This document shows positions 1 to 24,319 of a stretch of 40,803 nucleotides of DNA, piece by piece. Each line of letters starts with the position of its first letter. Position 1 is the first letter of the stretch. Both the position numbers and the translations under genes were made by a program. The notes beneath the pieces were generated by a model. That model was not told the DNA's origin. It worked only from the letters and a program-made list of their open reading frames with translations, and made no database searches. Origin of the DNA: Proteromonas lacertae (lineage: Eukaryota); assembly GCA_002245135.1 (NCBI GenBank), contig NGBS01000025.1:62001-102803 (forward strand). The letters run 5' to 3'.

Positions 1-2
1 CT

Positions 3-488
3 GAACATTATTTATTGTGGGATAATATATATCATTTAAAATACAAATATTTATGGGTATTTGATCAGGATGTAATTTATACAGGAAATATCTATAACTT
101 CTTTAAAAAATATGATAAATATAATGATGATTTAATAACATATCATTACACTCCATATTATTCAAAAGGATGGCATGATTGTGTCACAGAAGAATATAGA
201 AAAAGCAGATCAAATATGACATATTATGTCGCTACTCATTTTCATAGACTATCCAAAAACTTGATAAATGCATTAAAAATGGAATTTAAACTTAAAAGAC
301 ATGCTCAAGTTGAACAAATGATAATAGAAACTGCTTTATATTATAATTTAAGTATTAAAAAAATGGATAAAATAGATTATGATAAAAAAAGAGGTTTTGG
401 AAAATGTATATATACTAAAAAAGAGTATGATAATCTAATAAATGAAAATTCTACAAAAAATATAATATATCATCCTGTGAGATACTAA
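3..488 (+). CDS. Partial (5'-truncated by window) putative glycosyltransferase-like protein, DUF3405-like
   Basis: Frame open from the window start. YKYLWVFDQDVIYTGNIYNFF contains a DxD-type motif and the protein ends in IYHPVR, resembling DUF3405 proteins from memory. Confidence 0.45.
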   Translation, partial: EHYLLWDNIYHLKYKYLWVFDQDVIYTGNIYNFFKKYDKYNDDLITYHYTPYYSKGWHDCVTEEYRKSRSNMTYYVATHFHRLSKNLINALKMEFKLKRHAQVEQMIIETALYYNLSIKKMDKIDYDKKRGFGKCIYTKKEYDNLINENSTKNIIYHPVRY

Positions 489-2169
489 TGCTATTCTCCG
501 ATTTTGTTTTATATTATTATGGTTACTATTTACTATTATGCTGCAATCAGAAAAGAATAATTGATGAGGCAAAAACTAACAATAGTATTAATAATTAATA
601 TATTCTAGATTTAAAAGCTATATGTTTTTCAATTATATATTATAATCAGCTATTAGAAGATGGAATAAAAGAATATATAAAAAGATCTAAAAGAACATTA
701 CACAAATATAAAACCTTAAACTGTTTTAAGATAAATCACATATCACATCCTCAAAGTATTAACATATCTTATTTGGATAATTCATTTATAAAGAATGAAA
801 AAATTGGCGTGGATAACATACAAAAATGTGGATTTGTCCTAGTTGCAGGTGGATTAGGTGAGAGACTGAATTTAGATTCAATTAAAGTACATATTTATAT
901 AATATATTTTTAGTTATCTTTAAATGTAGATCAAATCAGTGGATTATCGTATTTGAACCTATATTTTAATTATATAAAATCATATCAAACAAGTAAAAAA
1001 TTTTCAGCACATGTATGTATAATGACTTCACAGTCTACTGATAAAAGTATTAAACATTATCTTGAAGAAAATAAATACTTTGGTTTAAATAAAAATGACA
1101 TAATTACAATTCAACAAATAAATGTCCCTTCATTTCGTGATGAAGATTGTAACTTACTATATGATAATTACAAAATTGTTACTAAACCTCATGGACATGG
1201 TGATATTCATTATCTATTGTACTCTGTATATAAATATTTATATTGTAGAAAGGAGTGTTAGATATATGGAAAGCAAAAAGTTTAGATTATATAGTCATTT
1301 TTCAAGACACAAATTCACTAGCATTTGAAGCAATTCCTGTTTTAATAGGAAGTACTATAGATAATGGTGTAGATGTTAACTATTTAACTACAGAAAGATT
1401 TAAAGGAGAAAAAGCATCAATTCTATGTTCTTGTAAAGAAGAAGGTAAATATTATAATGTAAGAGCAATAGATTATTCTCTTTTACCAAAACTATTTGGA
1501 GAAGATATAAATAATTGTAATAAATCAGAATCTCAATATCCAGCTGTAACAAATATAATATGCTTTAAATTAAGCTTATATTATGATACATTAAAAAATC
1601 GAAAGATATCACTTCCAGAATACATATTATCTAAAGATTTTAAATCATTCAGACTTGAAACAATTCTGCAAGATTATATATTACTTACTGATAATAATTC
1701 GAAAAATATTAGTCTAAGTCTACCAAGATGGTTATGTTTCAATCCAGTAAAAGAAATGTCTAACTATTCTGATTTTTATACACCAGATAGCGGAGAGAAT
1801 AATATATATATTAAAAATTGTAAGAAATTATCTCAATTAGGATGGAAAATAGGAGAAGAATGTGCTATTATTATAGATCCTTTAATTAGTAATACAACAG
1901 ATAGAATTGTTGAGCATTTTAAAGGAAATATAGTAATTGGAAATAATTCTAAGCTTGTTATAAGCGGAAATGTTTATATAAACAATTTGCGCTTACAAGG
2001 TTGTTTATCAATTAAAGTAAAAAATGGAGGATGTGTTACAATAAACAATATAAATATTCAGAACAACGGATTTGATAGAATAAATGAAAAAAATGGAATA
2101 TTCAGTACTAAAATAATAAATCTTTGTGATTATATTTTAGAATTTGGAAAAGGAAAGTACATTGTTTAA
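488..2169 (+). CDS. USP: UDP-sugar pyrophosphorylase (UDPGP family), 4 exons; introns 585-608, 887-913, 1226-1248
   Basis: Splicing three GT..AG introns (24, 27, 23 nt) joins GFVLVAGGLGERL, IMTS, TKPHGHGDIHYLLYS|KGVLDIW, FQDTN and RLETILQDY into one frame. These are hallmark USP motifs. Confidence 0.9.
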
Positions 2170-2198
2170 ATTCTATTTACATTCAATAGTAGCTACTA

Positions 2199-2885
2199 TT
2201 AATTCTTACTAAATACTTTATCAATAGGTGATGTATATTTTTTATTCATTGAATATCCATTTGATTTTAGAATATCCTCTATTTTAGATTTTTTATTATT
2301 ATTCATGTTAATCCATTCTATCATCCAATATGATACTGAAACATTAAAATCAAATGTTTCTAAAACCTCTAATTCACTTCCTTCAACATCTAAAGAAAAT
2401 AAATCAATATGTTTAATGTTATAATATGAAGTAATATTTTTTAATGTGTTACATTTATAAACGTTTTTATTATTATGTATAATTGTACCTATTTTTTCTT
2501 TTTCATTGAAATTTACATAAGCTGTATTGCATATAGGTGAACATGTAATAATTGAGTTATTTCTGTATTTTGAATTTTTAAGCAAAGCAATGCAATTCTT
2601 TTCACCTCCTTCAATTAATATTCCATGCCAATTAAAGTTCTTTTCAAAGAATATTGTATTACTTGTATCTAATCCATCATATGCTCCTAACTCAACAAAA
2701 AATCCATTCTCTTTGTTTTGAAAGAAGTTTCGATACAACGATATATCTTGGAAATATTGACTATTTTGATATTTGAATATATCTTCATTTCTGCATAAAC
2801 ATTTACTTCTAATTTTTAACAATATAAAGACTGTAAAAATAAGAAATAAAATTTGATATATTAATATTTTTTCTGAAGAAATAAT
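2199..2885 (-). CDS. FkbM-family (Methyltransf_21) SAM methyltransferase with N-terminal hydrophobic anchor; start codon unclear
   Basis: NGFFVELGAYDGLDTSNT, WHGILIEG and HIDLFSLDVEGSELEVL motifs. The frame stays open upstream of the TTG at 2822 through ILIYQILFLIFTVFILL. Confidence 0.85.
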   Translation of the reverse strand: MISSEKILIYQILFLIFTVFILLKIRSKCLCRNEDIFKYQNSQYFQDISLYRNFFQNKENGFFVELGAYDGLDTSNTIFFEKNFNWHGILIEGGEKNCIALLKNSKYRNNSIITCSPICNTAYVNFNEKEKIGTIIHNNKNVYKCNTLKNITSYYNIKHIDLFSLDVEGSELEVLETFDFNVSVSYWMIEWINMNNNKKSKIEDILKSNGYSMNKKYTSPIDKVFSKN

Positions 2886-2981
2886 GTTCTAAGATTTAAA
2901 TCAAAATTTAAATTTCACTCGATAGTCTAATTTCTCTTCAATATAAATCAAATGTAATTGAAATATTCTTTTTGTATAAAT

Positions 2982-3614
2982 TGTTGTGTGTCGTTTGTCA
3001 TATTTGGCCATTTGTCTACCAGACACTTTTAAAACAAACTAAATATATATTCTTACTTGTCTTGATTAAAAATTGTTACTTTTATACTTACTTTGTTATT
3101 TGACCTACCTCTGCAGTATACTATTTTGTTAATATAAATAGTTTGAATATTTGCGCCGTTTGTTTTCTAGAAATTTTGAAGCAATCTAAATGTATATTTA
3201 GCTAATATAAACTAAAATACATTAGCTGAAATGATTAGAATATAATAATTATTAAATCTTTCTATATAAAAAAGGAAATGTAAAAATAGGCTTGAGTGAG
3301 GTTTGATTTTTTATTTTCTTTTTCAATTTAAATGTGTTATGATCAACATTAAGTTGTTCTAATCATTTCAGCTAATGTATTTTAGTCTATATTAGCTAAA
3401 TATGCATTTAGATTGCTTCAAAAATTTCTAGAAAACAAATGGCGCAAATATTCAAACTATTTATATTAACAAAAAAGTATACTGCAGAGGTAGGTCATAT
3501 AACAAAGTAAGTATAAAAGTAACAATTTTTAATCAAGACAAGTAAGAATATATATTTAGTTTGTTTTAAAAGTGTCTGGTAGACAAATGGCCAACTATGA
3601 CAAACGGCACAACA
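2982..3614. mobile_element. Non-autonomous DNA transposon (MITE/foldback) with ~258-bp terminal inverted repeats
   Basis: 2982-3240 is the near-perfect reverse complement of 3357-3614 (TGTTGTG...CACAACA ends), around a ~116-bp non-coding spacer. Confidence 0.9.
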
Positions 3615-3865
3615 TAAATAATTAATTGAATTTTTCTCATAAAACTCCATTAATAGGAGATAGTATAAAGAACACAATTTTCAATTGTGTGATAATATGA
3701 GAATAATTTATAAAAAGGTTGAAAGATGATAAATAATTAGTCTATATTACCATTTAACATCTCGTTTAAAGTTGATTATTAACATTTTGTTGTAGATCCT
3801 TTATTTCATATTAGTATCACCTATTAATCCTCCTATAAAATAATTTCTATTGTAATAATATTAAA

Positions 3866-5592
3866 ATGATTTATAGAAATGATATTAATGGATTTAGAGG
3901 ATTATCATTTCTGTTTATATATTTATATCATCAATATCCAAATATATATTCAAACTGCTTTTTTGCTGTAGATATATTTATTCTGCTTTCTGGATATTTT
4001 TCTATATATTCTCAAAGCTCAAAAGATTTTTCTGAATATATTTCTAACAGAATTAAAAGAATAATACCTATTGGTTATTTGGTGTTGTTTTTATGTTATT
4101 TTAGCGCAAATATATATTTATCAAACTCTAAATTGGAAATCATATATAAAGATTTATTATCTTCATTTTGTGGTTATTCTAATATTCATTTTTATCAAAA
4201 GTCAATAGATTACTTTGGAGATCCATTAAATCAATCATTAAATCTTCATTACTGGTATTATTGCTTACAAGAACAATATTATCTTTTGTTTGCAGTATTT
4301 ATATTACATAGAAATAATAATGTACAATATATTGTAGAATTTACATTATTTTTATATTCGTTTGTGTTTACAATACATAATTACTCTAATGTTAATAAAT
4401 TGTACTATTTAATTAATTCTAGATTATGGGAATATATTTTTGGTATTTTTGTTTATAATATTAATATTAATGTTAGCATAAATAATAGCATATTATCGAA
4501 TTTATCTTTACTAATATATATTTTACTTATACTTTATCCATCAAAAATCAAAAATCATATTATTCCTCCAAATTTTATATATTTAGCAGTTGGTTCTTCT
4601 CTTCTTCTTAATAATTCAAGCACAATAATAATCTCTTATTTATTTCAATTTTTGGGTAAAATATCTTTTTCAGGTTATTTAATTCATTACCCTATATTAT
4701 TTATGTATAAAAGTAATAATGTAGTAAAGAATCTATGCAAATTCTTTATTACTTTAGTATTATCATTCATATCTTACGATTGTATTGAAATAAATGCATA
4801 TATTAAAAATATAAAATCAAATAATGTATTTATTTTATTTATTCTACTTGAAACGTTTATATTATGCTATTTCAATAAAAAAATAAGAAGTTTATCATTT
4901 TCTGTAAGATATTTAACTAGGACAACTGCTCTTAGTGATTGGAAAAATTTAGAGCATTCATTTAAACCATTAAAACAAAAGATTCTTATGTTATGCAGTG
5001 GATTCCTCCTATATTAAAAAATGTCAACATAGCATATTATAATTTAGTTTATTACCATTATTGGATAAATAGAATAATATACAAAAATATCAGTAAATTA
5101 ATTATGTCAATTAAAGCGTTTCAAATTAAATACATTATTTTGTCAAATTATTTAGCAAGCTGCAATAAATGTCTTATGAAATTATATTCAGATTTATATT
5201 CTCCATTCAAAACTTTTATTGAAATACTGCTTCAGAAGGTATGTAATACTTTATATATCATTCAAGACAATCCATATCACAACAAAGATGTATTTATTAA
5301 TCCAAACGATGGTGTTAATTATACTTATTCAATTATTGGAATAAATTCCAGTGTTAATTTATTTCCCATATTTAAATATAATAAACTAAAATATATAAAC
5401 ACATTAAATTGGATTTGTAACAACAATAAATGTCAATTATTTAAAGATAATTATTCTGTTTATGTAGGACCACATCATCTTACTATTAGTTTTACACTTT
5501 CATTAAAAGATAAAATAAACAGAAATATTACTTTTGAAAGATTAAAATACATTATAAATAATACCATCATTTACAATAAAGAATTTCATTAA
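3866..5592 (+). CDS. Acyltransferase-3 plus SGNH-domain O-acyltransferase (OafA/OatA-like), frame break near 4980
   Basis: YRNDINGFRG, AVDIFILLSGY, RIKRIIP, LHYWYYCLQEQYY, SRLWEYIFG and LGKISFSGYLIHYP. The second frame supplies DSYVMQW (GDSH-like block) and a C-terminal GPHHLT. Confidence 0.85.
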
Positions 5593-5801: not shown

Positions 5802-6749
5802 CTATTGTATGAGATGTAAAAAATAAATTTCGTGTGGTTTTAATCTATGAATCATAAAATAGTTGTATATGTTACTAATTGATACATTACCCTCAACTAT
5901 TTTTTTATTATATTGTCTTACATCACAAATTTTATTACTTGACATTTTTGACAATCTCCCTATAAATACATCTTCTTCGCTACCATAGCAATTAGTGTTT
6001 AATTTTGAATGGCTAGCATTGAGCATTCCATTTATTAGTTTATATGGTATAACATATCCCATTCCACTAGGAAAATATCCAACTAAATATCCCCATATTT
6101 TATTTTCTGCATTAATTCTATGTATTAAATGTAGTCTTCTTAATATATTTATATTAAAAAATGTATCTGTATCATGTTTTATTAACCATTTAAAATGAAT
6201 ATGTAGTTTTATGCTCCATAATAATATATTGTATGTTTGAAGTATTAAAGCATAGTAAGAAGATAGAAAATTGAATTGAAGTATATCTTGGTGTATGATA
6301 GATTCTTTTATTATTTTTCTATTTATAATATAATTATTACTCTTACCTGTAACGAATACACATGATAAGTATTTATAATTGCTATATATTTTTCTAAATA
6401 CTTCCCTTTCATAAAACATATCAGGTTCAGAAATTATAGTTATTAAATAATCGCAATCTGTTAATGTAGGATAATCAAGTTGATTATGACTGTACTCTTT
6501 TAATAATAAAACATGTGGATTTGATTTTCTATGCTTGATGTATAATGTATTGGTTTTCCTGCTGCATGTTACTCTTTTTGTTATATTAAAACAATTATTA
6601 ATTCTTTTTAATCTATTGTACAATGTTTTACTATAGTCTAAATAATTTGATTTATATGTTAAATTTATAGAAATTGATAATATCGTAAATATAATTATAA
6701 CTGTTGTAAAATATACAAACAATCTTATAAATTGTAATGTAAAACACAA
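5802..6749 (-). CDS. GT31 beta-1,3-galactosyltransferase-like, type II membrane protein
   Basis: ESIIHQDILQ, WLIKHDTDTFFN, FPSGMGYVI and EEDVFIG motifs; N-terminal transmembrane segment. Confidence 0.85.
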   Translation of the reverse strand: MCFTLQFIRLFVYFTTVIIIFTILSISINLTYKSNYLDYSKTLYNRLKRINNCFNITKRVTCSRKTNTLYIKHRKSNPHVLLLKEYSHNQLDYPTLTDCDYLITIISEPDMFYEREVFRKIYSNYKYLSCVFVTGKSNNYIINRKIIKESIIHQDILQFNFLSSYYALILQTYNILLWSIKLHIHFKWLIKHDTDTFFNINILRRLHLIHRINAENKIWGYLVGYFPSGMGYVIPYKLINGMLNASHSKLNTNCYGSEEDVFIGRLSKMSSNKICDVRQYNKKIVEGNVSISNIYNYFMIHRLKPHEIYFLHLIQ

Positions 6750-6791
6750 AGATTTAAATATATAGGTAAATTAAATAATCTTCTATTGATC

Positions 6792-7535
6792 TTAATATAT
6801 ACTTACATTCCTAAGACCTAATGGAGAAGATATTTGATATGAATTAGGAATATATTGCGCACATTTATATTTTAATCTACCTTTAGGAATTGGTTTGTAA
6901 AAATTAAATCCATATTTTGTCATTAATGATGGTACAGGATTCTCTATAGCATACATATACAATTCAGAAAATTTGCATTTGCATATACTATTTATTCTAT
7001 AAGAAGATTCATCACCAATAATAATCCACAAATCTGCAGTAAATCTATGTAAAAATAAACCTATAACGCCATGAATATCTTGATAATTATGTCTTATATT
7101 CTTTAAATGAGGTTTAGCATAATCATAGAATAATTTTAGATAATCTGTTTTAGTTTTATTGCATACTTTAAAATTGTTAGGAAATTTTAAACAATCATAT
7201 CCATTATTATTTATATCTATATATATTTTCTCTTCACAATGAAAAATATTACTATTCATCCAAACAGGAATTGCTATATCAAAGTCATTATCATTAGGAA
7301 TGAAACCTCCGTTTCTAAATGCGCCTAATAATGAACCATCAATTAGAAAATATATGACGTTAATTTCTTTTAATATATTATATATTAACTTAGCTTTATA
7401 ATTGTCTTTTCGATTAATGTTCAAATATTTCTTATTTCGACTCCATGAGCAAATGTTGTTAATTTTATTATATCTCTCATAAAGTTTCATGCATATTATA
7501 AATAGTAGCATAATATAAAAATAGTATTTGTACAT
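6792..7535 (-). CDS. LicD/fukutin-family phosphotransferase
   Basis: YFLIDGSLLGAFRNGGFIPNDNDFDIAI motif and NPVPSLMTKYG; N-terminal anchor. Confidence 0.88.
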   Translation of the reverse strand: MYKYYFYIMLLFIICMKLYERYNKINNICSWSRNKKYLNINRKDNYKAKLIYNILKEINVIYFLIDGSLLGAFRNGGFIPNDNDFDIAIPVWMNSNIFHCEEKIYIDINNNGYDCLKFPNNFKVCNKTKTDYLKLFYDYAKPHLKNIRHNYQDIHGVIGLFLHRFTADLWIIIGDESSYRINSICKCKFSELYMYAIENPVPSLMTKYGFNFYKPIPKGRLKYKCAQYIPNSYQISSPLGLRNVSIY

Positions 7536-7810
7536 ATGTTAATAATTATTTAATTATATAATTTTATTTATATACTTTCATGATTCTTTTTATTACTTCT
7601 TAATAAACAAGTGATATTTTTCTTTTTTTACTTAAACATTATATAAGAGTAAAACACATTTCATTGAATAAACCTCCTCAAATGTTCATAGCTTAACATA
7701 ACTATACTTAATAAGCATAGTTAGTATTATCTAAAATAGACAAAAAAGCTATTCAATAATTTCAAATAAGTAGAAAGGTAGAATATTATATTGTTAGATA
7801 AAATCTATAT

Positions 7811-8068
7811 TGTTGTGCGTCGTTTGTCATATTTGGCCATTTGTCTACCAGACACTTTTAAAACAAACTAAATATATATTCTTACTTGTCTTGATTAAAA
7901 ATTGTTACTTTTATACTTACTTTGTTATTTGACCTACCTCTGCAGTATACTATTTTGTTAATATAAATAGTTTGAATATTTGTGCCGTTTGTTTTCTAGA
8001 AATTTTTGAAGCCAACTAAATGCATATTTAGCTAATATAGACTAAAATACATTAGCTGAAATGATTAG
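7811..8068. repeat. Third (solo) copy of the MITE terminal inverted repeat
   Basis: Near-identical to 2982-3238 in the same orientation; no matching opposite arm found nearby. Confidence 0.9.
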
Positions 8069-8944: not shown

Positions 8945-9748
8945 ATGTCTATTAAAAGAAACAATATAATATTTACAATATTTTGTACTTTAATTTTATT
9001 ATTATTATTTGAATATAAGAATAAAGCACAATATAATTTGTTAATTTTTGCACTTTCATGTGACAGAGAATTATTTTTGAATATTACGCTTCATAGTTTA
9101 TTTGAGCATTTTAATAAATATGAACATCATATTTGTTTAACTATATACTATTCTGATAGTGGTACAATAAATAGAAATCACTATATAAAGAAATTCAACC
9201 TGCAAAACATATTATATATGAACCCAAGCAACGTAAACTACATATATAGAATAATATATTCATTGTTATACATGAAGTATGTATTATTCATTGAAGATGA
9301 TAGACCTTTTATTAATAATATTGAGCAACATATTATTTATAGTAATTATATTGAAGAAGGAATTGCTATTCTAGAAGCAAGTAATTATATTTATGGAATT
9401 ACTTATAAAAACGATATCGAAACTGATATAAAAACAATTACCATAAGAAGTAATTTAGGTTTTCATATGTTATGCATAGCAACAAAACCAAAAGAAGATT
9501 ATTATTATGTAAATGCACCAACTTTGTATAAAACTGAATATTTGAAATTGATAAAAAATTATGAAAGCGAATTTACATCTGCAAAATTCTTTAAGAGTTT
9601 AAAAAAATACTATGGCTTTACATATAAGAATATTACTTGTAAAAATAATTCATTTTCTGTAAAATGCCAAAGCGTATCAAATCATCTTGATACAAAAAGG
9701 ATATATTCAACAAAAGGAAATAAGAGATGTAGAAATTATATGTATTGA
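8945..9748 (+). CDS. Putative GT-A fold (GT2-like) glycosyltransferase
   Basis: N-terminal TM, LSCDRELFLNITLHSL, YYSDSG and YVLFIEDD motifs. Confidence 0.65.
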   Translation: MSIKRNNIIFTIFCTLILLLLFEYKNKAQYNLLIFALSCDRELFLNITLHSLFEHFNKYEHHICLTIYYSDSGTINRNHYIKKFNLQNILYMNPSNVNYIYRIIYSLLYMKYVLFIEDDRPFINNIEQHIIYSNYIEEGIAILEASNYIYGITYKNDIETDIKTITIRSNLGFHMLCIATKPKEDYYYVNAPTLYKTEYLKLIKNYESEFTSAKFFKSLKKYYGFTYKNITCKNNSFSVKCQSVSNHLDTKRIYSTKGNKRCRNYMY

Positions 9749-10151
9749 CTTATTTTACAAAACAAGATTTATTATTTTATACCTTTTGTTGAATATATCA
9801 ACTAATCATTTAAACCATTATTCTGAATATGAATCACTCAAGGATATATATTGCTATAGAATCTCATAATATATCTATTATATTATAATTTCAATTAGAA
9901 TATTCTATATCAATTTCATCTAAAAAGAATTTTATAGATCTACATGTATATATTACACATTTTCTTATTATGAATGTATCTATAATATTAAGATGTTCAA
10001 TAATTAATAGAAATAAGAAAAAAGCTATTGTTTATAATTTAGTTCACCTTTTTGATTTTTGTTTCATTCATCCTATTCTGTCAAAGTTAGGTTTATTTAA
10101 AGCAGTTTATTTAACAAGCAAATGAAGCGGAAAATACCTATTCATTAGAAT

Positions 10152-11174
10152 TTGAAGATTGATTTTTCATTTCTTTTATTCTTTTTCATTCTTTATTATG
10201 TGCTTGTGAATATATCATTGTATTATTTAAAAGAAAAGTTTACTTATGTTAATTGCAAAATATTCAATAGTTTCGACTATAACAAATATTTTGTTCCTTT
10301 ATGTAACTATGATAAGAAGCATAAATCTATTATTACTTATGGATATTATAAAAATAACAATAGCAACAGATATATCTATCAAAGAAAGGTCATTTATAAA
10401 AATAAAGAAGCAATTATAAAGGCATATTCGTTTTTAAATATCAGTCTGAGCAAAATAATTATAGAAAAGAAGTTATTAAGTTTATGCATTGTTACTGTAT
10501 ATAAAAATCTAAACATAAATAATTTATTAAGAGCATGTTTATTATATTTGAGATTAGGAGTAGATCATATAACTATATACGTAAGCTATTACAATATAAC
10601 ATTCAAAAGGCAATATAGTTGGCTAAAAAAGAGAAAATGGATAGATATTATTTACTATCCTTTTCCAAATATATCTTTCTTTTATTATGGACAAGATTCA
10701 AAACTAAATCATTGTATTAATCATTATAGGTATATAACTGAATATGTAATTATAACTGATGTAGATGAAGTTATTGTTCCACAACATAATAACAACATAT
10801 TAGATGTAATTAATAGTTATGGTAAAGATAATTATGTATTTAGTTTTAATTCAGTAGAATATAGTGTAAATAACGTTTATGATAGTATATTTAAGGCAAA
10901 TAAAATCGGATGTATATATAATAAAAGTTATGAAAAAATGATAATAAGACCTGAAAAAGTGACTAGTATTGGTGCTCATTTCCCAAAATTATGGGAGAAT
11001 AAGAAAATATTAGTTTATGTAGATGTGAAAGATGCTTATGTAAGGCATGTAAGGAGGAAATTAAATAAGAATAAATGCTATGTAATGAAAGAAAATAATA
11101 TATTGCAATCACATATAAAATATATAGAAAGAAATATAATTTCAATCTTATCAAATAAAAATTTAGTCACTTAA
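10152..11174 (+). CDS. GT92/DUF23-family glycosyltransferase
   Basis: LSLCIV, LGVDHITIY, GQDSKLNHCINHYR, YVIITDVDEVIVP and KMIIRPEKV motifs; N-terminal TM. Confidence 0.8.
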   Translation: MKIDFSFLLFFFILYYVLVNISLYYLKEKFTYVNCKIFNSFDYNKYFVPLCNYDKKHKSIITYGYYKNNNSNRYIYQRKVIYKNKEAIIKAYSFLNISLSKIIIEKKLLSLCIVTVYKNLNINNLLRACLLYLRLGVDHITIYVSYYNITFKRQYSWLKKRKWIDIIYYPFPNISFFYYGQDSKLNHCINHYRYITEYVIITDVDEVIVPQHNNNILDVINSYGKDNYVFSFNSVEYSVNNVYDSIFKANKIGCIYNKSYEKMIIRPEKVTSIGAHFPKLWENKKILVYVDVKDAYVRHVRRKLNKNKCYVMKENNILQSHIKYIERNIISILSNKNLVT

Positions 11175-13212: not shown

Positions 13213-13259
13213 ATAATAAAAGAAATTAACTATATATATGTATATAATGATATACATAT

Positions 13260-14078
13260 ATGTTAGTATTTTATATAACATTGTATTTTATTATTTTTTT
13301 TTTAATATTTTTGAAGAATATAAAATTAAAACTAAAATCAAAGTATGTAATAGTTACAGGTGCATCTGAAAGCCATGAATTATCGTTAATTCAATTCTTA
13401 TATTATTGTACAAAGCATTTAAAGAATGTAATTATTGTTGTTTGGGATTTAGGCTTTTCTAATAGCTTTATAAAATCAATGAAAGAAATTATAATAAATA
13501 ATGAAAATATAATATGTAAAAAGTTTATTTATTCTCAATATCCATCATACTTTAATATTAATATTCAAAGAGGTGAATATGCTTGGAAGCCTGTTATTAT
13601 TAAAAAAACATACTTTATGTATAAAAAAGACATTATATGGCTTGATTCTGGATGTATTATGACAAATAATTTAGATAAAGTAATTAGTGATATACACAAA
13701 TATCATTGTTGGTCTATTTTTTCAAGTGGAACAATAAAAAAATGGACTCATGTAGGTATGATAATATACTTTAACGTATCAAATAATATAACGATGAGAA
13801 AAGTATGTTCTGGGGGAGTAGTAGGTTTTAAGTGGAAATCAAAATTATCTAAAGTTATATTAGATAAATGGGTAGAATGTGCATATAATAAAAATTGTAT
13901 AGCACCATTAGGTTCAAATATAAGCAATCATAGGCAGGATCAAAGTGCACTATCAATATTACTATATAAATATAATATATTTGATAATTGCCCAATTAAT
14001 TATTATTCAATAACAACACATAGAGATTTAAATAATATAAATACAGCTAATTTATTGCTAAAGAAGTTAATAAGCTAA
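13260..14078 (+). CDS. DUF1647-family putative glycosyltransferase
   Basis: IVTGASESH, WDLG, EYAWKPVII, IIWLDSG and NHRQDQSALSILL motifs. Confidence 0.8.
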   Translation: MLVFYITLYFIIFFLIFLKNIKLKLKSKYVIVTGASESHELSLIQFLYYCTKHLKNVIIVVWDLGFSNSFIKSMKEIIINNENIICKKFIYSQYPSYFNINIQRGEYAWKPVIIKKTYFMYKKDIIWLDSGCIMTNNLDKVISDIHKYHCWSIFSSGTIKKWTHVGMIIYFNVSNNITMRKVCSGGVVGFKWKSKLSKVILDKWVECAYNKNCIAPLGSNISNHRQDQSALSILLYKYNIFDNCPINYYSITTHRDLNNINTANLLLKKLIS

Positions 14079-14112: not shown

Positions 14113-15191
14113 TTACTTGAAATAATTGAGATGAAGATAATTATGTCCTATATATTCTATATTATCATATTTGCACTTACTAAAATATGATCCAAAAAGA
14201 GAAAATGTGCTTCCTCTAGTTAGTATTAAGTATTCTGAATTTCTCATTATCATGATATCTTCAAGTGATTTATTTAAACATTCTATTTTTCTACTATGGC
14301 ATGGTAGATTATAATCAGTATATATTGATTTTCCTAATTCTTTTTTGATTTTATGCTTAACAAAATATGAATCAGAAAGCAATACCACTATATTTAGTTT
14401 GTTATTTTTAATTGTCTTAATTAATGATGATATTTCTGTAATGTTTAAATACCTTTTGAATGGTTCTTTATCTGCATCACCAACTCTTAAATGAATGGTA
14501 GAATACTTCAAATTCATTGATATATGAAATCTCTCTCTAAAATGTTGAATTATTATATTTCTATATTTTATTGATGGCTTTAAATATACTTCACATATCT
14601 TTTTATTAACTTCTCTAATTTTAAATGATAAGGTGTTATTATATGTATATAATAATCCCTTTGCTTTGAATAAATAATTAAATTCATAATTCTTTAATAT
14701 TTGTTCTGTAGAATACCAGTGTTTATCTGCTCCTATTATATCATTAGAAGATTTAATAGCTGCAACACCATCTGTAAAGAATGAGACATTAAAGAACTGA
14801 ATATAATAGTAATTTATAGGAAAATCAAAATAATTCCATAATAATTTCCATGAAACTATTATTACTATAAAGACTTCCATTATACTAAATAATGATCTAT
14901 TTGATAACAAAGATACGAGTATTGAACTAACAATTTGAAGTAATGAATTTCCTAATCCCTACAGAATATTAATATCAATACTCCCAAATGTACTTTATCA
15001 TAAAATACTTTTCCTTTACGAGTTATATAATAATCATGTGTTTGATATGCTTGATATTTTATGTTTATCAACAGACTTTCATAATAATTCTTTATGTTTT
15101 TATTACACTTGGTATAATTTATAACAATAATAAATATCGACATAAATAATGTTGTTACTATGTAGAGAAAATTCATTCTATATAATTTCAT
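14113..15191 (-). CDS. Fucosyltransferase-like (GT11/NodZ-type), 2 exons; intron 14959-14981
   Basis: A 23-nt GTATT..GTAG intron joins the TM exon to GLGNSL; HLRVGD, LLSDS and GSTFS motifs follow. Confidence 0.8.
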
Positions 15192-15193: not shown

Positions 15194-16590
15194 TTACCAA
15201 TGTTCTATATATTCATAGGTATTATCTGATTGTTTTATATTCCCATTTTCAAAAAATATAGAATTTGCTGACAAACCAACTGTGCTTCTTAATTCATCTA
15301 TCAATCTAATTACATTACTCTTTCTTGTTCCTGAAAAGCTATTACAATATAATGCTGCTTTTATATCAGCTATAAAGTTCAATGTCATTTCATCTCCTCT
15401 ATTTAGATTACCACTTAAACCGTCATTTTTTCTTAAAAATTTTAGATAAACAGTTTTAGCAATCTTTCTTTCATTAAAAAATAATGTAACATTAGGATCG
15501 TCAGTTGATAAATATATTTGTGTGTTACAGCCTGTAGTTAACTTGTGTATGTAATATGATGATATATAATCTTCCGAATTTAATAAAGTCATTTCTTTAT
15601 ATTTATCACCATGCCTTATCCATAAATTAAAACACCCTCTACTCAAATCTTTTCCCAATGATTTTCTTACAATATTGTTTGTTTCAATTTCCGTTCTTTT
15701 ATTCAACCTAAATATATAGGTAGAGCCTTGTATTCTCCAATAATGTATATATTTATTTCTATCTATTGGTGCTTCTTTTATTATTTGTATAATTTTATGT
15801 GGTATAATTTTTTTGTAAGTTTGAACATTTTCCACATATAAATGTTTTTCTGTCTGATTAATACTTACATATTCTTTAGAGTTTACTAAATCATAATATG
15901 ATAAACTACAGTTTGTTAATTGTTCTAAAAAACACAGCCAATTCAATTCTTTTAAGCAATATTTTCCATATGCTTTCAATGATTTAAAATAAGGATCAAT
16001 TATAGCAATCCGATTTGTTGATAGTGCTAATGACAAATAAGATGTGAATACGTGTATTTCTGCGCCATGCCCAGCACGAAATCCTTTTATTATTAAGTAT
16101 TTCTTATCAATACAATTCATAGGATGTTGATAATTATAAATATAAGACTGAACTTTATATGTATGTGTAATAATATTTCTAAAGTTAAATTTATTGTTAG
16201 GTATAAGTCTATAATACGATGAATCAGGAAAAGATCCTTCCACAGATATAATTTTGTTATAATTATTATTAGAGTACAATCTGTGGTAAAAAACAGAATT
16301 ATTTACTTTATATAAATTCATTTTCTTTAAAAAAATACAGAATTTGATATTGGTATTGATTAGCATATCATTCCATAAATCTTTTCCATATTTATAAGCA
16401 TTTATAGAATAATTTATACATTCTGATTTGTTATTGGATAAACATTCTTGATAAAAAGAATAAGAGTTATCACAATAATGTATGTCAATTATATTTAAGA
16501 AAAATATAACATATAATGCAAATATTGTATATATAAAGCCAATAAATAAACAATGAACAGTTATTATTAAAGATTTAAATGATATATAAT
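15194..16590 (-). CDS. alpha-1,6-fucosyltransferase-like (GT23/FUT8-type); frame open upstream of ATG 16366 through a TM segment
   Basis: QHPMNCIDKKYL, AGHGAEIH, WIRHGDKYKE, IYLSTDDP and GTRKSNVIRLIDELR motifs. Confidence 0.8.
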
Positions 16591-17602
16591 ATTATATTTC
16601 TTATACTATTTTCTTGTATTATTGCCTTTTATATTATTAAATATAACTCATATGTTTCTATAGTTACAAATATGAATAATATATTTTTAAATAGCATATA
16701 TTCTGTCAACACCTTTGTTACTGCTGGTTTAGGTAATAGATTAATGTCATTTGCAGGAATAATAGCTATTTCTATATATTTTGATTATAAGCCTAAAAGT
16801 ATTATGGTAGTTATATTAAATAGTTGAAAACTGGAACGAATTCAATATTTTCTATAATGTTCCTAACTATAATATAACAATTAGTAGCAACAAAAATGTT
16901 AAGAGATATATGATATGTCCATTTAATATAAGAATGATAGAAGAATTAAAAAGAGAAAAAGATTTATATTTCTGGTACATCTGGTGTGATACAATATCGA
17001 GTTTAATAACAAATAATAAATATTTAACGAAAATAAGTAGGTATATTCCTAAAACACAATTTGTGTCTAAATCAAATATAGTCTTTAATTTATATTATCA
17101 AATATTTAATTCACTTCTTCATATAAATAACAATATACAATCATCAATAAATCATTTCATTTATATGAATAATATTCATGATTATTTAGGAATTCAAATA
17201 AGGGTTGGCAATGCAGATTTAAAAGAAAAAGAATTTACTACAATTGATGATATATATATCATATTAAATTTGGCATCTAAACATAAAGAATATAGAAATT
17301 GGTTTTTAACAGGAGATTCTTATAAGCTTAAAATAGAATTGAAAAAGAAGTATAGCAATATTATCCTATATTCAATAAATAAAACAAAACATTATAATAT
17401 TTATAAAAATGACTCTACTATTGTAATAGAACATGAACTATTGTCAAAGTCCAAATTTTTTATTATATCAAAAAGCACTTTTGGTTTAACAGCTTTATTA
17501 AAATCTGGTATATTGATAAATAAAGGCATAAGAATAGGTTTTGAAATTAAAAATGGTAATATTTTTGATGTATATACATACTTCAATGATTTTTTAAAAT
17601 GA
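16579..17602 (+). CDS. Fucosyltransferase-like (GT11/GT37/NodZ-type), 2 exons; intron 16799-16823
   Basis: AGLGNRLMS in exon 1. A 25-nt GT..AG intron restores the frame to GIQIRVGN, FLTGDS and STFG. Confidence 0.8.
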
Positions 17603-17777
17603 TGAATAAATACTTCATCATTATTTATTTTTAAGTTGAATTTTCAAAAATCAAACATTTTGATATTTAATTTTATAGCAATTCTTCCAATAGTTAAATT
17701 TAAGGAAAATTATTTATTATTTATCTTAAATATAATTATGAGAATTTCATATAGTATATAAATGTGGCACAAAGTGT

Positions 17778-17825
17778 CAGAGTCCCAACGAGTTTTCTAG
17801 GGGTCTGTCCACTTCTAGATTTAGA
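17778..17825. repeat. Left copy of 48-bp imperfect direct repeat
   Basis: CAGAGTCCCAACGAGTTTTCTAGGGGTCTGTCCACTTCTAGATTTAGA; 39/48 identical, ungapped, to 20813-20860. Confidence 0.85.
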
Positions 17826-18063
17826 CCAATGTATAGCTATACTAGGTCCAATACCGAGAGAATCAGCACTTCCTTTTACTTGAAGGACACTGGTAAGTAC
17901 GACCTATGCATACGAAGCAGTGATTGTGAAGGTTATTCAACTCAAGTGTTCCTTCAACAAACACTTGATAGCAAGGTAATATCTCTTAACGATGTTACGG
18001 TCTTTTAATTACTTGTCTTCTTCTTCTACTATGATCTGTATCTGTATCTGGGGGTTCAGTTAC

Positions 18064-19308
18064 TTATACTATCTCGATGATCCCGTTCTCACTGATCTTT
18101 AACAACCTACCTGTCACGATGAAGAAGTAATGGGTAACATTCTTACTAGTGAGTGCATCGTTGTACATCTCAAAGGAGACCTTGATATCATTATCGAGAG
18201 GACGGCCACGCTGGTTCTTGATGTTGGTTAAGTCCGAGGTGGTAAAGTTAAGGATCTCAAGGAACTTCTCATTGAAGGGTAGGTCAATTGCCTGGTCATT
18301 GTAGCTACCCTTGATGAAGCTCTTCATGTGCTCGTAACTATTGTAAGTCTCCATGTTTTGGAAGTCAGGGTTGTAGTTAAAGTCATTGATCCACCACTTG
18401 AACTTAGAGGTCATCGCAGCAGGCAGAACATTACCTTCCTTATCATAGCATCAGTAAAGGATGAACTTTACGTAAGGTCCGATGGAACTATTGATATTGA
18501 AGGAGTAGTTGAAGCAGCTGGAGCTGTTACTTACTTGAGTTCTAACAACATGGACATCGTTGAAGTCCACAGGATTTGCAAGCAATGTCCTTGTTGTAGT
18601 TGGCCTTGAAGTAGATATCTCAAGACTTACCTTAGTCTCATCCTTTAGTGTAGCATCAACGATGTCCACCATCTTACCTTTGTCTTGCCATCGTATAGAG
18701 ATGTAAACCTTCTCCCCGAAGTAGACATCAATAGGAAGACTGAGGATGGTGTTAAACAACTCCTTGCAAGGGATCTTCATAAGCAAATCGAAGGCATCTC
18801 CATCTATTGTTTGTTAATAGTCATAATCATCATTAGCACCTCCCGTGAACTTCATTCCATTTTCAAGGACCTTACCTTTCTTATCAATCCAGACTCCATC
18901 GTAGTACATCCCATGATGAGCCATCTTACTTGCCTTACGCATAATCTTAGTCATGATACCTCGGAAGATCTCGTAATGCTCTTGAACCTTTAACAAGGAT
19001 ACTCCCGATTGATTGTAGACATGGATACTTCCAAGGACGAAGGTATCAGCTAAAATAACTTCCTTGAGACCAGCTGCTTCTACATATAGTCGATATTGTA
19101 AGTGGGACTTAGAGAAGTTTATAAAGTTATCCCCGGCAATCTCTAAGGTGACTTCATCGCTAAGACAATCCTTAGTAATCTCTATTCGTTGTACTTGACT
19201 TGCAACTAAAGGGATGAGTTGATCGAGAGCTACTTAGGGTTGCACTTCATCGATGAAGTCATGTTCCTGGGAGATGATGGAGGATGGACCAGTATGGATC
19301 TTACTCAT
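18064..19308 (-). pseudogene. Major capsid protein homologue (Polinton-like virus type), 414 codons with three in-frame stops
   Basis: ORFs 18996, 18786 and 18414 share one frame with ATG 19308. Stops lie at 19234-36 (TAA), 18814-16 (TAA) and 18451-53 (TGA). Colinear similarity blocks match 39807-40803. Confidence 0.75.
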
Positions 19309-19329
19309 TGTGATATTCAGGAGGTAATA

Positions 19330-20813
19330 AATCACTTTGGGAAATAATGCAATAGCATACTTACACTTTACGATAAGGCTTCTTGTTGAGTTCATTCTGT
19401 TGTCTCTTACTTAATCGAGCATACCCACAGGATTCCTTAAAGGACTTCTCTTGATTGAGTATGTTGAATAGAAAGTAGACTGATAAGAACCCGATGATAA
19501 TCAGCTTCTTGTAAGTTGCCTGTGACAAGTCCAGGTGATGTGCTATCCTGTTGATCTTAAGTAAGTACGGGACTCTTCCACTTGCACTAAATCTCTTGAG
19601 CTGTTGTAGTTGTTCTGAAAATTAAAGACTCCCAAGTACTGTCCATTGAAGTTCTGATATTCTTGGGAGATCAATAGATTGAGTTCATCTTTCACTTGGC
19701 TTCTTACTTCCTCGGGACACTCTTCTATGAACTCTTCATCATCATCATTGTCATCATTGTCAGTCTCTTTGGAATAGATGATTCCTTTACCTATCCTGAC
19801 TTTACTAGGAGCTGAGTCTGCTGTGTAGCTGTACTCGTATTGTGGTACATGATTACTTTGCCCTGAGTCTATCGGTAGTGTTGTGCTTGCTGGAGATGAT
19901 GAACCTGATGCAAGGTACACTGCTTCAAGAACTTCAGCTGCTCTAAGTACGTGGATCTTTGATTGTCTTGGATTGCATTTCCATGAACTCCATTGCCAGC
20001 TACGAGGTCTAAGTTGTTCTATCCTCCGATCTCTAAGCTTATGCTATCTACCATGGAGTTATTCATCTGGGTTAAGTTCTTGTTGCCTGATGCTTCTATC
20101 ACGTAGTTGACAACCTCTTGATACTTCTCCTTGAGCTCCTGGACTGATAGTTGATTCACCATCTCGTTCCTTAAGTAGCTGCTGGAATAGTTAACTCCTC
20201 CTAAGTTGATACTATCGGTGGTGACTTCTCCGATCATAGCTAATAGACCTCGCTTCATCTCCATCTCATTGTTAGGGATTACCATCACAGGTAAGCTTTG
20301 TTCCACGGGAAGAAAGCGCATCTCGACTCTTAGTTGTTGAACCATTATTCTTGCAATCCTCTTGTAATCATCTTGAGCACTTCCTGTTGCTGATCGGAAT
20401 AGAACTAGTTAATTCTCATATGGTTATCATATAAGTCATCAACTTCATCATACCACTCCTTAGATAAGTCTTCAAGGTGTAAGTCATTCGCTGGTTGTTG
20501 TGGACTGGAGATGTAATCTATTAGCTTATAGATGGTCATGGTAATTTGCTTAAGGAAAAGAATCATTGAGAATTGCTTATGCTCCGAAGGAGCTTAAGTA
20601 TGATATCAACATTGCCTGTTAATTGATGGCTCCACCTCTGGCTATTCCTCCACAGTGTTTTCTAAATCCTATCTTACGAGCAACGACAGCTACTTGTTGT
20701 TGTCCTAAGGCATCAGCAGCATTGTAAATGATCTTCTTGTCTTGTAGGAAGTAGACCCCGTAGGAGTAATCCTGTAGGCGTCTTATATAAATATGACTAT
20801 GGTACATTGTCAC
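19330..20813 (-). pseudogene. Degraded ORF(s) of unknown function upstream of the island capsid gene
   Basis: Consecutive fragments 20813-20619, 20345-20019 and 19920-19543 share the codon style of the capsid gene; includes an acidic DNDDNDDDEEF tract. Confidence 0.5.
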
Positions 20814-20860
20814 AGAGTTCTAACGAGTGTTCTTGAAGTCCGTCCCCTTCTAGATTCAGA
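20813..20860. repeat. Right copy of 48-bp imperfect direct repeat
   Basis: CAGAGTTCTAACGAGTGTTCTTGAAGTCCGTCCCCTTCTAGATTCAGA. Confidence 0.85.
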
Positions 20861-20994
20861 GTTGACCTTTACAAGGCCTTCATCGATGCAATCGATTTCT
20901 GTATAAATAAACAATATAAACATTAAATATAAAATGAAAGAAATGCTTATTAAATATCATTATAATGTGAATTACTATGTGATTGTAAAACTTC

Positions 20995-22059
20995 ATGAAA
21001 ACTAGAACTATATTCTATTTTTTCATATTTTCTTTAACAATTATGATTATTAGCTTAAATTGCAATCATTCATTAGATTTAATGATAATAATAGTTCCAT
21101 CAGATTCTTACTACATTTATATGATTAAGAATTTTTATATCACTAATATAATAAGATATAATCTCACTTATATGTTTAAAGTTGTAGCATTTACCTATAA
21201 TATGTATATATTATGCAAAGAAATGAATATTCCAGTTGATAAAATGGATAAATATATCTTAGAAGATAATAATTCATATAAAATAAATTCACCTAATTTT
21301 ATCAAAAAAACAAGATTAAAACATCCTATTGTGTATAAATATTTAAAAATGTATCAAATTGTACTATTTATTGATGCAGATATATATTTCTTTAAAAGTC
21401 CTTTGTTATTATTAAATTACTTTAACAAAGATTCAGAATTGATGATGCCTTGTGATAATAAAGCATGCACTATACTAAACTATGGATATTTGTTAATTAG
21501 AAATACGAAAAACGCTCTTAGATATATAGCTGAGCTTATATCTCTAGAAAAGAAATGTAAATTATATACGTGGGAATATGGGGAACAAGGAATTGCTAAT
21601 AAGCATTTACATTCAATACATTACTTAAAAATTCAGCGAATGCAGATAAATACATTTATGGATGGACTTAATTTCTTTAATAGTTATTCATTTAATTTTG
21701 ATATAACAAAAACAAAATTATTAGGATTTCATAATGATTTTACTATAGGTATTTATTCAAAATTGTATCGATTAAAAGAATTGAATCTTTATTTCTATGA
21801 TAATTACCAAAACATTAATGATTATAATTATTTATATTATATTGGAAAGACAAATTATAACATCAATATTACTTTAAAAATATTATCTTTCCTTGTGTAT
21901 CTAAGTAAAATGCTTAATAGAACCATTATATTACCAAGGTTTCAGTGTTTTAAGAAGAAATTTTGTACATTTGTTGATTTATTCAATTTAGAATGCTTCA
22001 GATCATGCAATATAAAATATGTAGAAAATATATCATTTTTGCTATATATTTGCTTTTAA
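20995..22059 (+). CDS. Nucleotide-diphospho-sugar transferase (GT77-like)
   Basis: N-terminal TM, VLFIDADIYFFKSP, LNYGYLLIR, EQG, KLYRLKELNL and LNRTIILPRFQC motifs; true 3' end uncertain. Confidence 0.75.
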   Translation: MKTRTIFYFFIFSLTIMIISLNCNHSLDLMIIIVPSDSYYIYMIKNFYITNIIRYNLTYMFKVVAFTYNMYILCKEMNIPVDKMDKYILEDNNSYKINSPNFIKKTRLKHPIVYKYLKMYQIVLFIDADIYFFKSPLLLLNYFNKDSELMMPCDNKACTILNYGYLLIRNTKNALRYIAELISLEKKCKLYTWEYGEQGIANKHLHSIHYLKIQRMQINTFMDGLNFFNSYSFNFDITKTKLLGFHNDFTIGIYSKLYRLKELNLYFYDNYQNINDYNYLYYIGKTNYNINITLKILSFLVYLSKMLNRTIILPRFQCFKKKFCTFVDLFNLECFRSCNIKYVENISFLLYICF

Positions 22060-22361
22060 AGTATCTTAACATTAGATAATCGAGATACAATCATATTTTA
22101 TCAAGCGTTAATCATAGTGTAACTTACATCAATAATTATCTTAATTTATCTAGTAATTATAAATCGCAAGTAATAGTGTTCAAAAAAATTGATATAAACA
22201 GTTGTAACTTTACATACAAATGTATTGTTAAAGATAACAATTGGCAAAAGAGATATACTAAATGTATATAACTATAAATTTATAAAAAGATACACTAAGA
22301 CAATTCTTTAAAAAATCATTATCATTAATATTAATTACAAGTTAGCTTGTATAATGTATAG

Positions 22362-23561
22362 ATGCGATATATAGGAGTTGATATTTTTTTAATAATATCT
22401 GGTTATTTCAATATACAAAGTATCATAAAATATAAATCGCGATGCTTGTATTTAACAAAAAGATTATCAAGATTAATTCCTTCATCATATATTGTGCTAT
22501 TGTGTATTTTATTATATTCAAATATGATTAGCAATTACAATATATTATATATTATGAAGGATTTACAATACTGTTTATATCAAATAATGAATATCATGTT
22601 GTATAAAAAATCTATTAACTACTATTCACAAGATTATAAAACAATTCTATTACATTACTGGTCATTATCATTAGAATGGCAATATATTGTTCTTTCTTGT
22701 TTGATATATAACAATATAACAATATATATACGTATTGCAATCATTCTTATTTCTATATTTTCCACTTTTTATTATAGTACTAGGGATATTAGTTTTACAT
22801 ATTTTAGTATAGTATGTAGAATATGGGAATTTATTATAGGAGAATTATTCTATATAAATCACAAAAATAATCAAAAGATGTTAATACCATCATTTATTAC
22901 TCTTATTCTTATAAGCATTATTAAAGCTTCTAGATTATTTATACTTATACTACTTACTGCATTTATGATTATATTTCTAATTGAAATAAATAACAATTCC
23001 ATCTTTAGCTTATTTATATTTAAATATTTAGGAAATATGTCTTATGTGTTGTATTTAACTCATTATCCCTTACTAAAATTATCAAAAAATAATACTTTTA
23101 TGAAAATATTTATATTTTCTTATTTATTGAATTTCATTGAGCAAAGATTTAGTTTATTTTGTAAAACAAGTGCATATTTTATCATCACATATATATCTAT
23201 AACAATCATATTTTCATATTTATGTTACTTAATAGATAAAAATAATCATAAAACATTAACAAAAGTAGTTGATATGCACAATTTTTCAAATTGTGACTGG
23301 TATAGCTTAAATAAATTGTATGTCAGTAAAGTTTGTATCTTTAATACAAAACATATTATAAAATCTGATATCTTGTTATTGGGTGATTCACATTTGCTTG
23401 CATGGTTAAAAGTCATTAATGATTTACATTTATCAAAATATCCTTTAATTTTGGTAAATAATTATATTGAATCAATATGTAAAAAAGAACTAAAATTTCT
23501 ATATCAACTGCTTATAAAAATATATAATATTATTTTCATTTCTCATTATTTACATAAGTAA
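22362..23561 (+). CDS. Second AT3-SGNH O-acyltransferase paralogue, possibly truncated
   Basis: GVDIFLIISGY, KRLSRLIP, LLHYWSLSLEWQY, RIWEF, LGNMSYVLYLTHYP and LLLGDSH motifs. Confidence 0.85.
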   Translation: MRYIGVDIFLIISGYFNIQSIIKYKSRCLYLTKRLSRLIPSSYIVLLCILLYSNMISNYNILYIMKDLQYCLYQIMNIMLYKKSINYYSQDYKTILLHYWSLSLEWQYIVLSCLIYNNITIYIRIAIILISIFSTFYYSTRDISFTYFSIVCRIWEFIIGELFYINHKNNQKMLIPSFITLILISIIKASRLFILILLTAFMIIFLIEINNNSIFSLFIFKYLGNMSYVLYLTHYPLLKLSKNNTFMKIFIFSYLLNFIEQRFSLFCKTSAYFIITYISITIIFSYLCYLIDKNNHKTLTKVVDMHNFSNCDWYSLNKLYVSKVCIFNTKHIIKSDILLLGDSHLLAWLKVINDLHLSKYPLILVNNYIESICKKELKFLYQLLIKIYNIIFISHYLHK

Positions 23562-23639
23562 AATTATTAGAAAAAGTGTGTTTAAGAAGTTTTTTCTATA
23601 TTAAAGATATGTTTGTCAGAATTATAACAAATTGACTAA

Positions 23640-24319
23640 ACCATTATCATATTTGAAATCATACCTATTCCATTTTTTAGGTATTTGATTAATAGCAAGT
23701 TTATATCTGTTCCTTTCCGAGTTATCCAAAAGCAATATTCTTCCATTTTTTTATAGCTCTTATTATGCAACCAGCTCTAGCTCTCCCATCTATACTAATT
23801 ATATCATATTTTCTATTTTTTATTAACCTGCTATTTACATATGTTTTATAACATAGCTTATTAAAACTAATGAATTGTTATGACATATCTTCTCTAATAT
23901 GATGTAGTTCAATTTTGTTATTTATTGAAAGTTGTTTAGTAACATTCTTGACAGATTCTGACCATTTCTTAGAATGCTAACCATATTGTGCTTGACCCAG
24001 AACTCCATTCTAATCCAATTGAATTAGAAGACAATATATGATCTAATATAAAAATGCATTCTCTAGATTTCCATGGCTCGCAATTATTACCAATGGAAAT
24101 ATACTTCTTCCTATATACACCTAATTTATGGTTATTTTTACATAAATTGGTTGGAATTCTTTTATCTCTCATCATTTGTATATATATACTCTATAAATTA
24201 TGAACTTTATTATCTATATTTTCATAATTAATATGTATATTTGATAAATAAAATGGTGAGAATCCAATACAAACAATTAAAACAATTATGCATATACAAA
24301 CAACAATATTAATGTTCAT
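23640..24319 (-). pseudogene. Class I SAM methyltransferase pseudogene with N-terminal anchor
   Basis: ATG 24319 plus TM, then an in-frame stop, then PW...GLEWSSGSSTIWLA*. YDIISIDGRARAGC and LLLDNSER follow downstream across frame breaks. Confidence 0.7.

Follow-up and report, generated by a model that had tools for sequence, protein, structure and literature searches.

Glycosylation genes are usually scattered in eukaryotic genomes. Among the linked sets, the galactosaminogalactan cluster of Aspergillus is said to hold five genes for one defined polymer, and the SCG/SCA side-chain transferases of Leishmania reportedly form arrays of one family. The large known exception is the outlier chromosome of the prasinophytes. 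In Ostreococcus tauri, this small outlier chromosome (SOC, chromosome 19) carries 14 glycosyltransferase (GT) and 8 methyltransferase genes among 101 open reading frames (ORFs) (PMC5082852, PMC5498103), with GT92 and FkbM named among them, and GT23 is named for the outlier chromosomes of Pseudoscourfieldia marina (PMC13213038).

Here, we will focus on a block of 17 host genes that occupies positions 1 to 24,319 of a 40,803-nt stretch of contig NGBS01000025.1 (assembly GCA_002245135.1, filed under Proteromonas lacertae); this whole stretch is termed the window. At least 13 of the 17 genes are for glycan enzymes of unrelated families, and the reading that we favor, and hold to be moderately probable, is that this packed block is a fast-changing locus that sets a surface glycan. 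The closest known kind of system is the SOC of the Mamiellales, the block being denser and in an unrelated host. A first-pass annotation, made from the letters of the DNA, had described a cluster of about 17 glycan genes here, and this cluster is real, with no non-glycan annotation and no convincing match to a non-glycan family for any of its 17 genes. It took bacterial loci as its model, and overlooked the eukaryotic precedent that exists in the outlier chromosomes of the Mamiellales (PMC5082852, PMC5498103) and of Pseudoscourfieldia (PMC13213038).

Comparison with described systems

The likeness to the SOC lies in unrelated GTs, methyltransferases and sugar-metabolism genes gathered together with transposons, in fast divergence and in a putative surface-glycan role. 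Glycosyltransferases, methyltransferases and sugar genes are enriched as in Table 1 of PMC5082852, and the window is also rich in transposons and repeats. There are, however, differences. Every host gene of the block is glycan-like (4 of the 17 by motifs only), whereas the O. tauri SOC has the GT and methyltransferase numbers given above; the block has LicD, AT3-SGNH and USP genes where the SOC has epimerases and sugar transporters; and the SOC belongs to a prasinophyte green-algal host with a GC content of 48-64% (PMC5082852), as against the ~22%-GC protist here. Further hallmarks of the SOC are that it is a separate small chromosome with a GC content below that of the remaining genome, that it is hypervariable between strains, and that its expression or size is linked to virus resistance. 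As to variation, the relatives found here are 47-77% identical but come without genomic context.

The block also recalls bacterial capsule and O-antigen loci, which are generally held to place sugar activation genes, several GTs, LicD and O-acyl- and O-methyltransferases next to each other with tiny spacers, in co-oriented operons that lack introns and have swappable, serotype-defining alleles. This mirror, drawn by the first-pass annotation, stands for the gene content but not for the architecture: the block lies on both strands (11 genes on +, 6 on -), it has seven deduced introns and type II anchors, and Pfam found no flippase or polymerase (Wzx/Wzy) or ABC export gene among the 43 ORFs of the window, whose left edge cuts the block. 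For these reasons, the block is capsule-like in content, yet it is no capsule locus. Giant-virus glycosylation clusters, of which one example was at hand (viral contig L080), are likewise said to pack GT11, GT31, GT2-type and DUF1647 genes on both strands, but the genes of the window are anchored, partly spliced and of host composition, with no viral core genes between them. An endogenised giant-virus cluster would have genes that lack introns and, for the most part, anchors, interspersed with viral core genes, and this is not what the block shows. The sets of Aspergillus and Leishmania share with the block the linkage of eukaryotic surface-glycan genes, but the block comprises ~ten unrelated families. 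A literature search, whose incomplete coverage leaves an earlier description possible, found no such cluster described for Blastocystis or Proteromonas.

The gene families of the block

Pfam annotation, the check that had been proposed for the cluster, places nine of the 17 genes above its curated cut-off for glycan-related families, namely UDPGP/USP, FkbM, Acyl_transf_3 (two genes), Galactosyl_T (GT31), LicD, GT92, Nucleotid_trans (GT77-type) and DUF1647. Weaker GT support, from profiles or a language model, was obtained for four further genes (11196, 12310, FUTa and FUTc; coordinates in Table 1). For the last four, which are ORF1, 8945, FUTb and the gene at 23625-24319, we take the glycan role from motifs only (GT-A, GT23-like, class I methyltransferase). 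The earlier statement that essentially every gene is glycan related holds at three grades of evidence.

The USP gene product matches solved USP structures of the PDB (E 1e-16), and a search with its exons gave 0 matches among 2922 word-sharing candidates (longer proteins). This very divergent USP could represent an additional copy whose sugar-1-phosphate specificity has changed. Its N-terminus is rich in Tyr, Leu and Cys and lies under our anchor threshold. As for 11196 and 12310, their Atlas features are at 0.93-0.94 to clusters of GT8/nucleotide-diphospho-sugar transferases, and their best matches (0.97-0.98) are unnamed clusters, which the tool treats as leads. Taken together, FUTa and FUTc align (HHalign 92.8%, E 4e-7) with a set of eleven proteins of the GT11 cluster that came from the fetched loci. 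The GLGN, HxRxGD, SD[DS] and STFS motifs are found in order in both, as in 7 of the 11 GT11 rows; a plain HMM from the same 11 rows did not detect them. By motif order and profile similarity, they are predicted members of the GT11/fucosyltransferase superfamily. The GT23-like motif pattern of FUTb was written after inspection of the sequence, and no profile match to GT23 or to another family was found. The four genes without a tool assignment are blank or below cut-off in Pfam, NCBIfam, PHROGs and PDB, and none of them was found in phages, plasmids, 351 Bacteroidota-side genomes or with home-made profiles, one of these scans having got through 3 of its 7 queries and partway into the next one.

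The DUF1647 protein (gene 13260) has been studied further. Its model, built from 115 aligned homologues, has a pLDDT of 95, and the top Foldseek matches of this model are glycogenin, LARGE1 and UGGT, which are all GT-A (E ~1e-6, TM ~0.5). It is predicted to have a GT-A fold and a glycosyltransferase activity, and all 9 residues that are invariant in the 115 homologues are kept in it. Among 124 matches, a quick tree places it in a 16-row clade of AT-rich, Logan-only proteins (SH-aLRT 98), which are 47-77% identical pairwise and are not nested within a supported bacterial or viral group. An anchor-type stretch is found in 14 of the 19 closest AT-rich relatives and in 7 of the 101 other homologues; since anchors are common in the host-like clade and rare elsewhere, the secretory-pathway form of DUF1647 is supported. 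The 11196 family counts four clusters of relatives, at 59-62%, and no others among 1841 candidates. Divergence on this scale, seen in both families, is what one would expect if they diversified rapidly, and it fits a fast turnover. Neither 11196 nor 12310 has a detectable relationship to DUF1647.

We also fetched 112 DUF1647 loci from bacteria and giant viruses. In nine hand-picked loci, 64 neighbours were scanned, and a Pfam-named GT was found in six of the nine and a glycan-related neighbour in eight. A single-sequence search of the 112 loci turned up FkbM relatives in seven of them; LicD, AT3 and 12310 had relatives in a single locus apiece, and for 10 of the 17 proteins used as queries there was no match. 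The order and strand of the 12310-DUF1647 pair are shared by two of the 112 loci, both from Actinomarina (L067 9244-10768; L052 9235-10750), where the 12310 homologue is full length and directly upstream of DUF1647 (205 columns, 29%, above 2000 shuffles); this hints at a functional coupling or a co-transfer. On viral contig L080, GT11, GT2 (two), GT32, GT31 and GT25 genes are packed round DUF1647 at 6697-13959.

The clustering and chance

Thirteen glycan genes among 18 consecutive ones have, at an assumed background of 10%, a probability of 5e-10, that is 1.6e-5 occurrences expected over 30,000 windows, and 0.08 occurrences per genome at a background of 20%. The Pfam-only count of nine gives 0.002 at 5% and 0.63 at 10%, and is thus significant at 5% alone. 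At ordinary glycan-gene densities, chance is excluded as the cause of the cluster. In Blastocystis ST1, for which 132 GTs are reported (~2% of genes), within a range of 68-157 GTs for the stramenopile genomes tabulated in PMC5608401, the 125 GTs with locus tags reach a maximum of 3 per 18 consecutive tags, the same as in random draws, provided that the tags follow gene order. Because these GT genes are as dispersed as random ones, clustering is no default of such genomes.

The block does not stem from tandem duplication either, an origin that is ruled out by neighbours that are mostly unrelated. Only AT3a and AT3b match each other within it (~30% identity), and the FUT-like genes are mutually at most 26% alike. 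This bears out the many unrelated families announced at first, and it means that the linkage needs a different cause.

Anchors, introns and layout

Four genes regain their reading frames if GT..AG introns are assumed, seven in all and 23-30 nt long (USP 24, 27 and 23; FkbM 30; FUTa 23 and 30; FUTc 25). These introns were deduced from the frames, not from RNA, and they point to a compact AT-rich eukaryote as the host. The secretory-pathway form proposed at first is borne out: a hydrophobic N-terminal anchor is found in 11 of the 17 genes (KD19 above 1.7), LicD and USP being under this threshold. The ATG ahead of the anchor is missing in three long, otherwise open genes (5802-6770, 10149-11174 and 15194-16591), which are GT31, GT92 and FUTb. 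Decay, non-AUG starts and hidden first exons are possible causes. Neither an ATG nor a one-intron start model was found for GT31, and GT92 has either an in-frame TAG right ahead of the anchor or a 44-nt intron. In the LicD gene, a 24-nt GTAAGT..TAG stretch at 6783-6806 (-) overlaps the stop and could be an intron altering the final residues.

Read with the standard code, the genes have long open frames, with TAA, TAG and TGA all used as stops. An altered code was ruled out, as TAG terminates 11196 at the same point as its relatives. The GC content is ~22% in the leftmost 27 kb, apart from an insert of 41% at 17.8-20.9 kb, and 26-30% in the rightmost 13 kb; the composition of the block genes is uniform (GC 20-25%, GC3 11-19%). 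Gene spans make up ~73% of positions 1-24319, and the remainder consists of transposon relics, spacers and the 3.1-kb insert. Most neighbouring genes are separated by 3-71 nt, the stop of ORF1 overlaps the ATG of USP (TAATG), and FUTb and FUTc overlap head to head. The extent first given to the cluster, 1 to 24,319, is right as to gene content but too short, since the block goes on to a third AT3 relic. For reference, PMC10690189 gives GC contents of 21.5-23.1% for tortoise-type Blastocystis and 27.0% for Proteromonas lacertae, and spacers of 645-719 nt and introns longer than here for tortoise-clade Blastocystis, which do not match the block. The Blastocystis-type downstream motif is absent after the 17 stops inspected.

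Decay, mobile elements and foreign DNA

Among the 16 complete genes, eight look intact (USP, LicD, 8945, 11196, 12310, DUF1647, FUTa and FUTc), the start is doubtful in three (GT31, GT92 and FUTb), and five are broken (FkbM, AT3a, AT3b, the GT77 tail and the methyltransferase-like gene). In AT3a, the AT3 domain is open and the frame breaks immediately ahead of the SGNH domain, while the C-terminal tail of GT77 is broken or spliced in an unclear manner. Errors of the assembly, or introns that went unrecognised, could account for some of these breaks, but not for the miniature inverted-repeat transposable element (MITE) in the FkbM exon, which has a 6-nt target duplication. The idea of gene birth and death thus keeps its decay half, and its intact and broken paralogues come down to the AT3 trio (~30% identity).

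The transposon and viral surroundings that had been noticed are indeed there. The 41%-GC insert is likely a viral relic: its frames are broken by stops, it has no database match, and one frame (18064-19233, -) weakly resembles the ORF at 40257-40715 of the Polinton-like element (E 8e-5 within the window). A capsid label, considered for this ORF and for the insert, was dropped for want of database support. The Polinton-like element carries an rve-type integrase at 30605-31765 (E 0.008, weak) and a protein-primed PolB in pieces at 32770-36854 (PF03175, E 2e-14). Scans of viral and metagenome contigs gave no related locus for USP, 11190, 12310, the insert, PolB or the integrase (single-protein scans for the Polinton-like element).

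Table 1. Features of the window, with positions counted from its first letter.
Feature	Position	Strand	Evidence and remarks
ORF1, truncated at window edge, possibly GT-like (DQD motif)	1..488	+	DUF3405 E 7e-4, under cut-off
USP, divergent, 535 aa, intact	488..2169	+	PF01704; introns 585-608, 887-913, 1226-1248
FkbM-type methyltransferase, anchored, MITE inside first exon	2199..3640	-	PF05050 E 3e-9; intron 2889-2918
MITE in FkbM first exon	2982..3613		~200-nt inverted arms; 6-nt target duplication (ATAAAT)
AT3-SGNH O-acyltransferase a (AT3a)	3866..5592	+	PF01757 E 3e-17; SGNH E 0.008
GT31 beta-1,3-glycosyltransferase, anchored	5802..6770	-	PF01762 E 9e-13
LicD phosphotransferase, intact	6792..7535	-	PF04991 E 2e-9
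Solo MITE arm	7806-8068
Transposase relic	8300-8700	-	Tc1/IS630-like and hAT-like (with 24750-25000) by motifs only
Gene 8945, anchored, intact	8945..9748	+	GT2/GT-A-like by motifs only (EDD)
GT92	10149..11174	+	PF01697 E 1e-22
Gene 11196, anchored orphan-family GT-A-like protein, intact	11196..12239	+	Atlas 0.94 to GT8-type clusters
Gene 12310, anchored GT-A-like protein (DAD motif), intact	12310..13212	+	Atlas
DUF1647, anchored, intact, predicted GT-A (GT8-like) fold	13260..14078	+	Pfam, model
FUTa, GT11/fucosyltransferase-superfamily-like, intact	14113..15191	-	introns 14959-14981, 14856-14885
FUTb, anchored, GT23/FUT8-like by motifs only	15194..16591	-	without ATG ahead of anchor
FUTc, GT11-like, intact	16579..17602	+	intron 16799-16823
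Foreign insert between FUTc and GT77, likely viral relic	17764..20901		41% GC; sharp edges; 7-nt direct repeat (TATAAAT) on both sides
GT77-type nucleotide-diphospho-sugar transferase, anchored	20995..22268	+	PF03407 E 6e-11
AT3-SGNH O-acyltransferase b (AT3b)	22354..23753	+	PF01757 E 2e-14; N-terminal deletion, C-terminus broken
Methyltransferase-like gene, anchored, in five pieces	23625..24319	-	class I by motifs only
Transposase relic	24750-25000	+	see 8300-8700
Tc1/mariner transposase relic	25599..26087	+	PF01498 E 1e-4, weak
Third AT3 O-acyltransferase, relic	26800..27346	+	start approximate; PF01757 E 0.09; AT3b match E 2e-5 within region
Polinton-like element	27455..40803		left edge approximate

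Other explanations of the block

The decay has to be weighed in another light, as the block could be a low-constraint region, such as a subtelomere or a repeat-rich arm, in which copies of fast-evolving glycan genes accumulate and decay, with no single pathway and many genes silent. Half of the genes are damaged, the MITE, Tc1 relics, foreign insert and Polinton-like element lie in or beside the block, and the outlier chromosome is described as nearly silent in one Pseudoscourfieldia strain (PMC13213038). Such a region should however have gathered non-glycan genes as well, and 0 of the 17 is annotated so; the intact genes have kept their catalytic motifs, and no telomere repeat array is present in the window. 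We consider this unlikely, although it deserves attention. Another scenario, to which we give a low probability, is that the block, whole or in part, was acquired in a single transfer from a glycan locus of a bacterium or from a giant virus, and was domesticated afterwards by the gain of anchors and introns. It would account for a majority of intronless genes, for the GT11, GT31, FkbM, AT3, LicD and DUF1647 genes found round DUF1647 in bacteria and giant viruses, for the 12310-DUF1647 order common to Actinomarina and for Atlas look-alikes that are mostly viral clusters, which the tool warns is no sign of transfer. It does not sit well with a composition that is host-like throughout, unlike that of the 41% insert, with a DUF1647 clade outside supported bacterial and viral groups in the quick tree, with a USP resembling eukaryote-type USPs, with the absence of any viral hallmark gene in 1-17.6 kb, or with the 10 of 17 proteins unmatched in the 112 loci.

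Finally, the host might carry a huge glycan-gene repertoire everywhere, so that the window would be nothing special. The 16 divergent DUF1647 relatives of the host-like clade speak for an expanded family, but ~20% of all genes would have to be glycan genes before 13 of 18 became plausible once per genome, as against the GT numbers tabulated for stramenopiles and the share of genes in Blastocystis ST1 given above (PMC5608401). This is the least probable of the three, and very improbable.

Several points count against our own reading, that of a fast-changing surface-glycan locus. That only half of the complete genes look intact also fits a decaying dump. Four of the 17 genes have no tool assignment, and the structure model of 11196 (pLDDT 40) is unusable. 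The background densities used above are assumed values for the host. The divergent relatives come without genomic context and, instead of being alleles of one locus, may be dispersed paralogues or stem from many species, and the shared 12310-DUF1647 pair is one independent case, in loci selected around DUF1647. In the Pfam scan, none of the window genes encoded a nucleotide-sugar transporter, an epimerase or an enzyme of the GDP-fucose pathway, unlike in the algal outlier chromosomes, and the substrates, products and localisation of the enzymes are inferred.

A proposed mechanism and its meaning

USP makes UDP-sugars in the cytosol, the GT31, GT92, GT77 and GT-A enzymes add sugars, and fucose is the sugar that GT11-like enzymes usually attach. 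CDP-donors provide the phospho-groups that LicD transfers, while glycans are O-acylated by AT3-SGNH enzymes and O-methylated by FkbM enzymes. If the block is a surface-glycan locus, its USP would supply the UDP-sugars, the type II anchored enzymes would presumably act within the Golgi on a single coat glycan or glycolipid, and the LicD, AT3-SGNH and FkbM enzymes would attach phospho-, acyl and methyl groups to it. The linkage would let a compatible set of enzymes be inherited together, and deletions, or insertions of transposons or viruses, would switch single decorations off. Strains would then differ in their coat chemistry, as for the algal SOC, where viruses are the suspected driver. Blastocystis bears a carbohydrate coat, which would be relevant if the host is related to it (PMC5608401).

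A bolder version, which we put forward as tentative and rather doubtful, is that the block is to a eukaryote what a capsule locus is to a bacterium. It would be a linked and co-expressed set of Golgi enzymes that makes a defined coat glycan, is exchangeable across strains of a gut protist lineage, is reshuffled under pressure from viruses or host immunity and contains several new GT families. By analogy, it would be convergent with the algal viral-immunity chromosome, at the density of a single locus.

The block yields candidate enzymes of uncharacterised families, namely DUF1647 (predicted GT-A), 11196 and 12310. A block denser than the SOC, in an unrelated and possibly gut-dwelling protist, would mean that such islands of glycan genes had more than one origin, and it would offer a genetic handle on how the coat of protists varies against viruses or host immunity.

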